Of a stretch of 64,000 nt of DNA, positions 24,385 to 63,112 are shown in pieces. The position numbers and the translations under genes are program-made. This DNA comes from Jejuia sp. UBA6058 (GTDB taxonomy: Bacteria > Bacteroidota > Bacteroidia > Flavobacteriales > Flavobacteriaceae). The first letter of the stretch is position 1; each line of letters opens with the position of its first letter. The notes beneath the pieces were generated by a model. The model searched no databases, was not told the origin of the DNA, and saw nothing but the letters and a program-made list of their open reading frames with translations. The stretch covers positions 11,848-75,847 of the forward strand of contig DIYI01000011.1 in assembly GCA_002428965.1 (NCBI GenBank), in the 5' to 3' direction.

Positions 24385-24433
24385 ATTATATTATTTATGA
24401 AGCAAGATTTGACGAGAAACGTCTCAGGAGTTT

Positions 24434-24508
24434 ACACTGCCTTTAGCATTTTTACTACATCTATAATTTGAAGATGTAAGAGGTTGCAATCAGTCAAATC
24501 TTTCCTCT
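24434..24508 (-). promoter_or_regulatory. SAM-II riboswitch (long-loop type) upstream of metK
   Basis: Minus strand: AGAGG-AAAGATTTGACTGATTGCA-ACCTCT (P1), inserted hairpin TACATCT/AGATGTA, then AAATGCTAAAGGCAGT (pseudoknot partner of GACTG and TTGCA). Promoter TACTTTTG at 24532-24525. Confidence 0.8.
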
Positions 24509-24620
24509 ATGATTTATTGATGTGCAAAAGTAAAAAAATTAAGAGAAATGAAAATATGAATTACTAAAAAATGCAAGTTAATGATTGTATGATGTTGCAG
24601 TACTTGCTTTGGCAGATAGG

Positions 24621-24707
24621 TGCGTTAGGGATTGTAGAGGAAATCCTTTTTGTGAGGTACGAGCAAAAAGATTGGAACGGAAAGCCCGACCCGACAGGGT
24701 AACGCCC
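24621..24707 (+). repeat. Flavobacterial intergenic multi-stem element (possible Flavo-1-like RNA motif), copy 1
   Basis: GCGTTA/TAACGC closing stem; GGATT/AATCC; CTTTTTG/CAAAAAG; CCC/GGG. GC-rich in an AT-rich gap. A second related copy lies at 54643-54788. Confidence 0.55.
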
Positions 24708-56597: not shown

Positions 56598-57382
56598 TAG
56601 TGGTGATATTAAGAATTTCATTCGCTTCTGTAATTTCCGAATTTAATAATGTCAAAAAAGTATTAGTCTTTGGTTTAATCTGTTCTTTCTGTTATTTAAG
56701 CTTTGCTCAGAAAGGAATAGATCCAAAACTCACAGAAGTTTGGGAGCCAAAAGTTCCGAGAGTTATTCCATACAAGAATGCTATCCCCAGTGATGCTATA
56801 ATGTTATTTGATGGTAAGAATTTTGATAATTGGACAGGTGTAAACGGAGAATTGCTCTGGACTTTAAATGACGACGGTTCTATGACAGTAAAACCTAAAA
56901 CGGGCTCCATAAAAACCAAGAAAAGTTTTGGTAGCATTCAATTACATGTAGAATGGAAATCTCCTATTGATACCATTGGTAGAACTGGTCAACAACGTGG
57001 GAATAGTGGGGTGTTCTTGCAGGAGTTGTATAAAATTCAGATTTTGGATAACAATAACAACGAAACCTATTCAAACGGTCAAGTAGGTTCTGTTTATAAG
57101 CAATCTATTCCTTTGGCAATGGCATCATTTCCCACGGGTGAATGGAATACTTACGATATAATTTATTGTCAACCAGAGTTTGATAAAAAAGGTAATGTTG
57201 TAAAAAAAGCCATAATCACCTTACTGCATAATGGTATTTTGGTATTAGATCATTTTGAAATTCAAGGAACTACCGTTTGGAGAGGTCAGCCTTCATATCA
57301 AATTCATGGTAAGGCTCCAATTATGTTACAGGATCATGGGTGCGAGGTGAGTTACCGAAATATTTGGGTTAGAGAGATTTAA
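56579..57382 (+). CDS. DUF1080 protein, tandem paralog with irregular 5' end
   Basis: Near-copy of the upstream gene (IDPKLTEVW, GNSGVFLQ, LQDHG..VSYRNIW). The best-context ATG at 56649 is out of frame, just before A-AAA-AAG. In-frame GTGs at 56600/56603 are alternative starts. Confidence 0.75.
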   Translation: MDSRNLIVVILRISFASVISEFNNVKKVLVFGLICSFCYLSFAQKGIDPKLTEVWEPKVPRVIPYKNAIPSDAIMLFDGKNFDNWTGVNGELLWTLNDDGSMTVKPKTGSIKTKKSFGSIQLHVEWKSPIDTIGRTGQQRGNSGVFLQELYKIQILDNNNNETYSNGQVGSVYKQSIPLAMASFPTGEWNTYDIIYCQPEFDKKGNVVKKAIITLLHNGILVLDHFEIQGTTVWRGQPSYQIHGKAPIMLQDHGCEVSYRNIWVREI

Positions 57383-57449
57383 ATTTATTACACAGCGCTA
57401 ATGACATAAATATATTTAATTTTAATGTTGTGTAATTCATAATAAGTTG

Positions 57450-57457
57450 TAATTTTG
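57450..57457 (+). promoter_or_regulatory. -7 promoter element TAATTTTG for the arg/pro operon
   Basis: Exact TAnnTTTG about 325 nt upstream of the first ATG (57784). Confidence 0.55.
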
Positions 57458-57470
57458 CCGCTCATATTAA

Positions 57471-57625
57471 CGAAAGGGGCTCACGCCGACGATTTAGAGT
57501 TAATAGTTAAGATGGTTATTCAGTGAAAACAGGAAACAACATATCTTTTACCTCTTATGTTTCAGTAAAGCATGCTGAAGCAGTTGTTGTGCGTTTTCCT
57601 CAAACTCGCCCCTAGTGGGGTGTAT
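57471..57625 (+). ncRNA. Candidate structured cis-regulatory leader of the arg operon
   Basis: Nested pairings GGGGC/GCCCC, GAGTT/AACTC and AGGAAA/TTTCCT; internal hairpins; competing hairpin CGCCCC-tagt-GGGGTG. Confidence 0.5.
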
Positions 57626-57783
57626 CAGTGTAAGAAAGTAATTCACTTTCAAATTTTCGTTATTTTTTTGATTTTAAGTTGTGTTAGAGAAGTGATCTAG
57701 CACTAGGAATAGTTTCAACTCATAAACTGGGTTTTAAATTGTGTATTTGAATAAAACTATGTTTTGTAAAAACATATATAAAC

Positions 57784-58371
57784 ATGGAGGCAATATTGAG
57801 AACAGATAGAAATACAGCGTTAGAGGAAGCAATAGCGTTTTGCGAAGAAAAAGGGCTTGAGGTTGTTTTTGCTCATGAGATTTCCAAAACGAATTTGCAG
57901 ATTATTTCAGAACGAACTAAACACCTGCCTGCAATGTATCATGCGAGTGTGGGTATGTTGTTAGACCGTTTAAAAAACGGTTGTTTTCTATTGAAAAAAG
58001 ATGGTGAAATTTTTGGGCATATTTTTGCACATAGACACACTATCGATAAATATTCCGTTTACGAACGTTCATCATTATGGATTCATAAATCCTACAGAAA
58101 TCACAATTTAGGGCTGCTTTTAATGGATTTTTTAACCAAAAAGTTCTCAAAAGAATTTCTTATTTCAATAGCACAAGATAAAACAGTTCATAACAACAAT
58201 GAGTTGTTAGGTATGAAATTTATAACCTTAAAAGATTTATCTCCCGTTTTGATTGAAACGCTTGAGAAATTAGGAAAATTGAGAGATGAATACAAATATA
58301 AATACTACGTTAACCCTTATTTCGAATCAAAAATTAATCAATTTAACAAGATTCTTAAGAACAATATTTAA
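57784..58371 (+). CDS. GNAT-family acetyltransferase, candidate short N-acetylglutamate synthase
   Basis: Acetyl-CoA motif-A-like SSLWIHKSYRNHNLG; first gene of the arg operon, 10 nt upstream of argG. ArgA role is inferred from context only. Confidence 0.65.
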   Translation: MEAILRTDRNTALEEAIAFCEEKGLEVVFAHEISKTNLQIISERTKHLPAMYHASVGMLLDRLKNGCFLLKKDGEIFGHIFAHRHTIDKYSVYERSSLWIHKSYRNHNLGLLLMDFLTKKFSKEFLISIAQDKTVHNNNELLGMKFITLKDLSPVLIETLEKLGKLRDEYKYKYYVNPYFESKINQFNKILKNNI

Positions 58372-62611: not shown

Positions 62612-63112
62612 ATGGCAAGAACGGGTAGACCAATAAAAGTTGAATCAGAACTTGAATATATAGATAGTTACGTAGAAAAAAACGATTATAAAAGTATCGA
62701 TATGTTAATCAAGACATATGGAATTGACTGTTATGATTCGTACAAAAGAACTTTTCTAATATTGGCTACGTCGAAAGGAAATCTAGCTATATTGAACAAG
62801 CTAATAGAAAAAGGAGCTGATTTGAATTTTCAGGACAAAAATGGGTATTCAGCATTACATTTTGTAGCTCAAAATAAAGAAAAAGAGATTGCAGAAGTTT
62901 TATTGGAAAAAGGAGCAAATCCGAACTTAAGAGACTTGTACGGCAACCCACCAATTTGGACAGCAATCATGAACGCCAAAGGAGATTTTTCGATTGTAAA
63001 ATTATTGTTAGAAAATAAGGCAGATGTTGAAATGAAAAATAATTATGGGAAATCACCAAAAGAAATGTGGAATGCAATGATTGGTAACGAAATAGATTCA
63101 CTATTAAACTAA
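62612..63112 (+). CDS. Ankyrin repeat protein
   Basis: Repeats GADLNFQDKNGYSALH, GANPNLRDLYGNPPIW, KADVEMKNNYGKSP. Confidence 0.88.
   Translation: MARTGRPIKVESELEYIDSYVEKNDYKSIDMLIKTYGIDCYDSYKRTFLILATSKGNLAILNKLIEKGADLNFQDKNGYSALHFVAQNKEKEIAEVLLEKGANPNLRDLYGNPPIWTAIMNAKGDFSIVKLLLENKADVEMKNNYGKSPKEMWNAMIGNEIDSLLN

Follow-up and report, generated by a model that had tools for sequence, protein, structure and literature searches.

A conserved 5′ leader of the arginine/proline operon in Flavobacteriaceae is a probable derived member of a family of arginine leader-peptide attenuators

The stretch of 64,000 nucleotides from Jejuia sp. UBA6058 analyzed here (the window) comes from a Flavobacteriaceae genome of 34% GC whose close relatives carry the names Hyunsoonleella or Jejuia. 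It contains a 400-nt gap (57383-57783) between a 3-keto-disaccharide hydrolase gene and an arg/pro operon, in which a GNAT gene is followed by argG, argC, proC, argD, an ankyrin-repeat gene and a proA-like gene. The region 57426-57783 is the promoter and 5′ leader of this operon, a conserved, cis-regulatory and operon-specific element whose features are listed in Table 1. An original prediction, made from the letters of the window, had placed a promoter at 57450, some 320 nt before the first coding sequence, and had proposed that the structured leader between them is an undescribed cis-regulatory RNA for arginine or nitrogen control. The promoter stands: a −7 box, TAATTTTG, with a TTG 19 nt upstream is conserved in all relatives, and ~320 nt separate this box from the GNAT start at 57784. 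The box fits the sequence TAnnTTTG, which we take to be the Bacteroidota −7 consensus, and the block TTGTGTAATTCATAATAAGTTGTAATTTTG is kept in the relatives that share the layout of the window (main-type leaders). A sigma-70 promoter scan returned matches no more numerous than in shuffles. The transcription start site is predicted near A57464.

Conservation in other Flavobacteriaceae had been set beforehand as a test of the proposal, and it proved extensive. The promoter and ~205 nt of RNA (57464-57669) are near-invariant in 42 species of at least 10 genera, and ~90 nt (57464-57556) hardly change across genera. BLAST against relatives yielded a conserved block with sharp edges, from ~57407 to ~57680, with 78-95% identity in eight genomes of the same genus. 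Conservation ends at the U-run, and only two genomes (G006 and G004), whose match reaches the start codon, retain the final ~100 nt before the ATG. While the promoter and ~205 nt stay conserved, identity of the adjacent GNAT protein is as low as 45-54% in more distant genera (Algibacter, Polaribacter). An invariant 20-mer, CGCCGACGATTTAGAGTTAA, is present in 43 species genomes; in 42 of them, from Algibacter, Tamlana, Neotamlana, Polaribacter, Hyunsoonleella, Flavivirga, Postechiella, Mariniflexile, Seonamhaeicola and Jejuia, GNAT-argG follows on the same strand at a distance of 250-320 nt, whereas the gene further upstream varies. The 43rd match (L051, Cyanobacteriota) sits inside a coding region and is due to chance. 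A covariance-model search found a single copy in the genome of the window and strong matches in 12 of 401 family genomes; one weak match (L080) without argG nearby is probably false.

A leader that combines a promoter of its own with a closed terminal helix and a U-run resembles an sRNA gene, and the end of conservation at the U-run fits that resemblance. The element would then sense no arginine: it would be a stand-alone small RNA (sRNA), or a 5′ stabilising or processing structure with a constitutive end at the U-run, and the operon would have a promoter of its own in the spacer, where an imperfect TAnnnTTTG is found (TATGTTTTG, 57758-57766). Alternatively, a DNA-binding repressor would occupy the inverted repeat TATTAAC...GTTAATA, which lies just downstream of the promoter. 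Against this, the element keeps a strict place and orientation ahead of GNAT-argG in all 42 of 42 loci although the upstream gene is variable, no −7 box was recognisable by eye between U-run and ATG in relatives with short spacers, the repeat is no less invariant inside than in its arms and has one compensated stem pair, and the element is homologous to leaders that carry Arg-run open reading frames (ORFs), as described below. The strict operon linkage and this homology make both a stand-alone sRNA and a DNA operator unlikely, and we give an element that does not sense arginine only a slight chance.

Rfam 15, searched at the gathering score and at E ≤ 10, matched no family to the gap and returned noise only (a lysine-riboswitch match of 13.4 bits, where the threshold is 30, plus one snoRNA and one miRNA), and a permissive Rfam search of 57350-57850 gave no T-box match; the original prediction had likewise recognised no known riboswitch or T-box. 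The UGGU of the window (57513-16) is not conserved among relatives, and a k-turn or T-box-like reading of the 5′ stem-loop was rejected by eye, as the motifs do not fit. The arginine repressor ArgR (PF02863) was found in none of the 41 Flavobacteriales genomes searched, with a positive Bacteroides control, so that another arginine regulator is to be expected.

Table 1. Features of the leader region of the arg/pro operon, with window coordinates
Feature	Coordinates	Strand	Description
Bacteroidota-type promoter	57426..57457	+	−33 TTG 57428-30, 19-nt spacer, −7 box TAATTTTG 57450-57
5′ stem-loop SL0	57465..57505	+	UAUUAAC (57465-71) / GUUAAUA (57499-505), encloses P0
Small hairpin P0 within SL0	GGC 57478-80 / GCC 57485-87	+	4-nt loop 57481-84 hypervariable
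Fossil Arg-codon run of ORF1	57484..57498	+	CGC CGA CGA TTT AGA; invariant as RNA
Helix P2	57512..57544 (57512-17/57538-44)	+	Encloses GNRA-capped hairpin
GNRA-capped hairpin	57519-34	+	UUC.GU GAAA AC.GGA; contains GUG start codon
Leader ORF (ORF2 homologue)	57523..57615	+	GTG start, 30 sense codons, TAG stop; (M)KTGNNISFTSYVSVKHAEAVVVRFPQTRP-stop
Hairpin P3 inside the ORF	57558-65/57575-82	+	8 bp, UGUUUCAG/CUGAAGCA
Hairpin H1	57609..57620 (57609-12/57617-20)	+	CCCC/GGGG; stop codon in loop
T hairpin	57634..57650	+	GAAAGU-AAUUC-ACUUUC; covarying apical pair
P1 3′ strand and U7	57655..57669	+	UUUCGUUA 57655-62 pairs with UAACGAAA 57468-75; U7 57663-69
Variable spacer	57670..57783	+	Local hairpins GUGUUAGA/UCUAGCAC (57681-57703) and UAUGUUU/AAACAUA (57758-57776), both in the minimum-free-energy fold
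First operon gene, 195-aa GNAT	57784..58371	+	Followed by argG, argC, proC, argD

The conserved block contains a short ORF. The original prediction had recognised no Arg-rich leader peptide and had pointed to two mini-ORFs, MVIQ-stop and MFQ-stop, whose ATG codons turn out to be lost in most relatives; what is conserved instead is a 30-codon frame with a GTG start, which translates as MKTGNNISFTSYVSVKHAEAVVVRFPQTRP-stop and ends CGT TTT CCT CAA ACT CGC CCC TAG (RFPQTRP-stop). The open 30-codon frame, its GTG start and an R(F/I)PxxRP-stop end are found in nearly all of 59 loci. The two Arg codons of the window ORF are not adjacent, CGT at 57592-94 (R24) and CGC at 57607-09 (R29), and both are decoded by tRNA-Arg(ACG). 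CGC is a minor codon in the window genome (9.5% of Arg codons), as is CCC. At the conserved C-terminal positions the substitutions are almost exclusively synonymous: R24 is encoded by CGT in 26 sequences and CGC in 2, with 2 non-synonymous exceptions, and changes are synonymous only at P26 (CCT 28, CCA 1, CCG 1), at R29 (CGC 23, CGT 7) and at the stop (TAA 19, TAG 11); the two codons that separate P26 from R29 are free to vary. Judged from these alignments, the C-terminus of the ORF is changing in the manner of a coding sequence.

Two divergent copies on metagenome contigs share the same 5′ core. One (L140) carries an ATG in the same frame, four codons ahead of the GTG (METSVKTGNN...RFPKFRP-stop), and in the other (L117) the ORF is without any Arg codon and the P1 3′ strand is missing; the latter may be a decayed copy.

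The ORF gains its meaning from a wider family of leaders. In a survey of the family, argG was found in 83 of 121 sampled Flavobacteriaceae genomes and 30 loci were fetched; a search with the GNAT protein had matched no more than 5 of 151 genomes, owing to differences in GNAT type. Most of the 30 loci carry, upstream of GNAT, a layout unlike that of the window, which we refer to as typical and in which two ORFs in series both end in Arg runs. ORF1 of the typical leaders reads MKNLKNKIRCTTPGLPVRNRRRRF-stop, with the end ...RNRRRRF-stop, and is closed by a long-range stem AUACGUU/AACGUAA followed by a U-run; in one leader (L113) the closing stem is fully compensated, AUAUAGAGU/ACUCUAUAU. ORF2 comprises 29-31 codons with a variable interior, and 16 of 17 leaders have the end ...RRxFPRRP-stop. 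The final Arg and Pro codons double as the upstream strand of a small hairpin (CGCCCG-UAA-GGG), 3′ of which lie a U-rich stretch and a second hairpin with the apex GGUGNGUCC. Weak covariance-model matches in other genera define a third, variant type located ~1 kb upstream of argG, in which the 5′ core TTAACGAAAGGGGC-NNNN-GCCGACGATTTAGAGTTA is followed by an ATG-started ORF, MKT.N...IPARRFRRPL(R/G)V-stop; this type is intermediate and has its 5′ core in common with the window. The near-invariant GGUGNGUCC apex hairpin is present in both typical and variant leaders, while the window has instead the T hairpin with its variable loop.

The ATG of ORF1 in the typical leaders (L087-L113) lies only ~5 nt past the −7 promoter box, and ORF1 is therefore probably translated from a leaderless or nearly leaderless mRNA.

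By its position in the alignments, the window ORF is homologous to ORF2. The column that corresponds to its GTG is GTG in 11, TTG in 4 and ATG in 1 of the 16 of 17 typical leaders in which it opens a 29-31-codon ORF ending ...RP-stop, and this restriction to NUG starts together with the fixed length provides strong evidence that ORF2 is translated in these relatives. Translation of the window ORF is then a reasonable expectation. ORF2 has 4-5 Arg codons in the relatives, partly in tandem, compared with two in the window. The counterpart of ORF1 has had a different fate. The run CGC CGA CGA TTT AGA in the 5′ stem-loop matches the ...RNRRRRF-stop end of typical ORF1 and falls within the 20-mer of the 42 arg leaders, and its frame has no start codon in the window and an in-frame TAA in several species (GGC TAA CGC); the first CGC is replaced by GGC or TGC in other species. 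We accordingly rejected the idea that the fossil ORF1 or the 5′-terminal frame (AUA UUA ACG...) is translated, there being no start codon and, in some species, in-frame stops. The U-run behind the unit-1 stem of typical leaders is also lost. The comparison suggests that ORF1 of the window survives only as a non-coding fossil in the 5′ stem-loop and that the window carries a derived member of the family.

The leader type goes with the type of the first gene. The main-type leader is always paired with the 195-aa GNAT of the window, and typical and variant leaders precede a different GNAT of ~205 aa with a Cys-rich tail, only ~23% identical to it. One species of the same GTDB genus (G014, locus L087; compare L076 and L078), with an argG 92% identical to that of the window, carries the typical leader and the other GNAT. 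As leader and GNAT differ together between species of one genus, the leader-plus-first-gene module seems to have been swapped as a unit.

The motif at the end of the ORF also raises the prospect of arginine-dependent nascent-peptide arrest, in which R(F/I)PxxRP-stop on a chain of ~30 residues would halt translation at high arginine, at the stop codon or close to it, and the halted ribosome would set the RNA fold or block Rho. The preservation of this motif at the amino-acid level, with almost only synonymous changes, is what such a peptide would show; nearly all typical leaders end in RRP-stop, 29-31 codons approximate the length of the exit tunnel, and Pro-stop is a slow termination context, with RP-stop also occurring in TnaC. 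Both the variant type and a few main-type sequences, however, have lost the stop codon and have an extended ORF (RRPLRV-stop, RPLGLFN-stop) while keeping the hairpin, and the interior of the peptide is not conserved. A biosynthetic operon would moreover need a stall at high arginine to lower expression, an RNA logic that is not evident here, and the Arg runs in both ORFs of the relatives are better explained by sensing of tRNA. We regard arrest as a slim prospect.

The leader is structured, as the original prediction had claimed: it folds better than shuffled sequences (z = −2.57, 0 of 100 shuffles as good). We built a structure model comprising P1, P0, P2, the GNRA hairpin, P3, H1 and T and tested it on 28 diverse sequences, among which it was 96.7% paired compared with ~45% in slid controls, and 9 pairs changed on both sides compared with 4.5 ± 1.2 in shuffles (0 of 500 as high). 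This covariation is limited to P3, H1 and T; the remaining helices are invariant or changed on one side only. Pairing of individual helices was counted in 74 main-type sequences. P3, inside the ORF, is 94.8% paired with compensatory changes at seven of its eight pairs (96% paired, with both-side changes at six pairs, in the 28 sequences). H1, whose 5′ arm consists of the last base of the final Arg codon and the Pro codon, shows compensatory C-G to U-A changes, and its equivalent is likewise fused to the last Arg and Pro codons in typical (CGCCCG-UAA-GGG) and variant (CCCC-UUGA-GGG) leaders. The T hairpin is 99.3% paired, with an apical pair that occurs as U-A (42), C-G (23), G-C (3) and U-G (5). 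A de novo column-pair covariation scan returned mostly G-U noise, with only P3 and the apex of T standing out and no covarying alternative helix. A 'helix A' from RNAfold, pairing CGCCGACGAUU with codons 20-24, was discarded, being 82.8% paired with 15-51 non-pairs at several positions and no compensation.

The 5′ half is conserved in another manner. The stem of SL0 is invariant in the 74 sequences and shows in the variant type (UAG-U-UAAC/GUUA-CUA) one compensatory pair change, U-A to G-C. It is the local minimum-free-energy structure as long as only the first ~120 nt exist, and its homologue in typical leaders is the long-range closing stem of ORF1. Within it, the loop of P0 takes at least 12 different tetranucleotides and its flanks never change. 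P2 is 94% paired with one-sided changes only, and the GNRA hairpin is 99.3-99.5% paired, with a GAAA or GGAA loop and one-sided, pairing-compatible changes (U-G to U-A, U-A to U-G); no compensatory change was seen in the alignments in either. Such a pattern could be that of an aptamer-like domain formed by SL0, P2 and the GNRA hairpin, whose ligand would be arginine, a pathway intermediate, tRNA-Arg or a protein and through which P1 and U7 would be controlled, with the ORF a dispensable leftover. The ~90 near-invariant nucleotides, including the third positions of ORF codons 1-11, the single hypervariable spot being a hairpin loop, the GNRA loop, and the retention of a fossil Arg run that is no longer translated are in keeping with a sensor made of RNA only, as is the predicted insensitivity of P1 and T to the position of a ribosome (see below). 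Yet the element has no Rfam match and no T-box signature, the C-terminal codons and stop bear a coding signature, the homologous ORF of the relatives has NUG-only starts and a fixed length, the whole family is built on ORFs with Arg codons, and the invariant helices, being without covariation, demonstrate no aptamer fold. An RNA-only sensor thus has a low probability in our estimate. What stands of the original proposal is that the RNA is conserved, specific to the arg/pro operon and absent from Rfam; a sensor without a leader peptide does not stand, since the family centres on short ORFs ending in Arg codons.

The pairings that the original prediction had listed had mixed outcomes. All of the sequence strings are present in the window. 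TTCAG/CTGAA is the inner part of the 8-bp P3, with compensatory changes at 6-7 of the 8 pairs, and the local GCCCC/GGGG hairpin is H1 with its C-G to U-A changes. The nested long-range fold, in which one 3′ strand would pair with three separate 5′ segments, did no better than chance in the 28 sequences (84.2% paired compared with 84.0% when shuffled; both-side changes 2 compared with 1.5), in a comparison for which the TTCAG/CTGAA helix had been entered one column out of register and its row is disregarded. GAGTT/AACTC is without compensation and at two positions fails to pair in 14-23 of the 74 sequences, and AACATA/TATGTT is specific to the lineage of the window, with 61 of the 74 breaking one pair. 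For AGGAAA/TTTCCT the outcome is ambiguous (91% paired, one compensatory case). GGGGC/GCCCC can always pair, as G-C or G-U, but its 5′ side never varies; GCCCC may switch between GGGGC and GGGGT.

Downstream of T, the P1 helix encloses the whole ORF and is followed by U7, making this the candidate point of attenuation by termination. P1 has a probability of at least 0.95 in all folds, and the 9-nt tail that follows it contains at least 6 U in 35 of 69 sequences. A comparable arrangement of long-range stem and U-run surrounds ORF1 of the typical leaders, with the compensated stem of L113 among them. 

In the spacer beyond, the hairpin UAUGUUU-UGUAA-AAACAUA (57758-57776) stops 7 nt before the GNAT ATG and recurs in a subset of relatives with other stems, for example UAUGCCU/AGGUAUA and UGUGUCUUU/AAAGACAUA. 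It may limit translation initiation; to our knowledge, a Shine-Dalgarno sequence is not used by these bacteria.

Taken together, we consider it probable, with moderate confidence, that the leader is a derived, ribosome-read member of a flavobacterial family of arginine leader-peptide attenuators, a family that is apparently unpublished. In the mechanism we propose, ribosomes on short ORFs with CGN codons would report the supply of charged tRNA-Arg. The ancestral leader would have had two units, the first an Arg-run mini-ORF with a long-range closing stem and a U-run, the second an NUG-started ORF of ~30 codons ending RRxFPRRP-stop whose last Arg and Pro codons lie in a hairpin arm. In the lineage of the window, ORF1 would have ceased to be translated, its Arg run and closing stem being retained as SL0, and ORF2 would have been kept with two Arg codons and acquired a new closing helix, P1, stacked beside the T hairpin and followed by U7. 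With ample Arg-tRNA, the ribosome would complete the 30 codons and depart, leaving a compact fold of P2, P3, H1 and T in which P1 closes as the polymerase transcribes the U-tract, and transcription would end at ~57669, before GNAT. With scarce Arg-tRNA, the ribosome would stall at the CGN codons within the P1 loop and hold H1 and the inner fold open; P1 would then come too late, its 5′ strand still being in SL0 or its closure being hindered by the bulk of the ribosome, and without P1 closure the polymerase would read through into GNAT-argG-argC-proC-argD and beyond.

Several observations weigh against this mechanism. In constrained folding with a ribosome footprint at R24, at R29 or at the stop, P1 and T remained unchanged with a probability of at least 0.92, and neither this folding nor the covariation scan found an antiterminator pairing that would exclude the terminator upon a stall. 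SL0 and P1 compete for the same 5′ strand, and SL0 is predicted to form earlier in transcription, but the P1 state is 7-13 kcal/mol more stable. As P1 and T are predicted in every ribosome scenario, the switch would have to rest on kinetics or steric hindrance and not on alternative pairing. P1 itself is 94% pairable with no compensatory change and has an A-C mismatch in 18 of the 74 sequences; the 9-nt tail has only 4 U in most Polaribacter (UUAUUAAAA) and reads UGUAUUG in two close relatives (G003 and G009), and a simple consensus terminator scan does not flag the P1/U7 site. As for the ORF, its two separated Arg codons are far fewer than those of classical attenuators or typical relatives, and its GUG start is located in the stem of a small hairpin. 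Variability over the whole ORF is 119/101/66 by codon position, with the third position the least variable, so that the N-terminal and middle parts are constrained as RNA and not as protein; the first 11 codons have zero synonymous changes.

The near-invariance of ~90 nt, silent codon positions included, leaves some room for a hybrid sensor, in which the invariant 5′ half, with its fossil stem-loop and its GUG-bearing GNRA hairpin, would bind arginine, tRNA-Arg or a protein; alternatively, R(F/I)PxxRP-stop may act as an arginine-dependent arrest peptide. We think this unlikely. If either form were true, the leader would be the first natural bacterial device that senses arginine itself and not tRNA charging, and a leader ORF caught in the act of becoming a structured RNA.

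Elsewhere in the window, two tandem paralogous 3-keto-disaccharide hydrolase genes (PF06439; 55863-56597 and 56579-57382, plus strand), 73% identical to each other, lie directly upstream of the leader. The ankyrin-repeat gene within the operon, between argD and the proA-like gene, encodes 166 aa (62612-63112, plus strand). A SAM-II riboswitch (53.2 bits; 24433-24513, minus strand) and a Flavo-1 RNA (52.7 bits; 24614-24695, plus strand) are found ~100 nt apart on opposite strands.

The control of arginine synthesis in Flavobacteriales, abundant marine bacteria without ArgR, was not described in the literature searched, and the leader and its family offer a concrete answer, namely that a ribosome would read the arginine supply on a tiny ORF. 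The attenuator reading further implies an evolutionary twist: one ancestral sensor ORF is dead as a gene and invariant as RNA, the role of stop signal appears to have passed to the long-range helix around the ORF that survives, and the leader-plus-first-gene module differs between species of one genus. If confirmed, leader-peptide attenuation would be extended to arginine and an Rfam family would be merited.

Classical leader-peptide transcription attenuators are trpL, hisL, leuL, thrL, pheL and ilvL, and the Bacteroid-trp leader is an Rfam entry from Bacteroidota. The window shares with the classical attenuators a short leader ORF before an amino-acid biosynthesis operon, cognate codons beside hairpins, a U-rich tract before the first structural gene and the absence of a classical protein repressor. 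It differs from them in that the cognate amino acid is arginine, with only two separated Arg codons and a GUG start, in that no antiterminator/terminator pair overlapping the codons was found and the candidate terminator stem is a long-range helix around the whole ORF, and in that a second, fossil Arg run is kept as RNA. Ligand-sensing arrest peptides, namely TnaC (tryptophan), SpeFL (ornithine) and the fungal arginine attenuator peptide AAP (arginine), are likewise encoded by leader ORFs of 24-34 codons with a conserved C-terminal motif upstream of genes of amino-acid metabolism, and R-P-stop is found as in TnaC; in the window, however, the position of the stop is not universal, the peptide interior varies, and the sequence bears no similarity to these peptides. 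The amino-acid riboswitches (lysine, glycine, glutamine) and the T-box resemble the window in having a long, structured, conserved leader that ends in a hairpin and a U-tract, from which the window is set apart by the lack of an Rfam model match, by a conserved ORF predicted to be translated and by the lack of a covariation-backed aptamer fold.

Nearer to the window, leader-peptide attenuation of the ilv, his and trp operons in Flavobacterium and the ilvE and hisG leaders seen in the transcriptome of Flavobacterium psychrophilum are reported in one study (PMC9723704), and no published description of a leader peptide for a bacterial arg operon was found in the literature searched. Closest of all are the typical arg leaders of the Flavobacteriaceae, with which the window shares the site upstream of GNAT-argG, an ORF2 (NUG start, ~30 codons, ...R-P-stop), a hairpin of the H1 type and the stem homologous to SL0; as in these, its leader stands upstream of the arg operon, on the same strand and once per genome. 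It departs from them in a non-coding ORF1 without a start, the loss of the unit-1 U-run, a reduction of the ORF2 Arg codons from 4-5 to 2, the replacement of the second hairpin with its UGNGU loop by the T hairpin, P1 and U7, and a linked GNAT that is ~23% identical. Leader-peptide attenuation as such is thus already known; for an arginine version in bacteria we found no Rfam family or paper, and to that version the window appears, from sequence comparison, to add a derived architecture.

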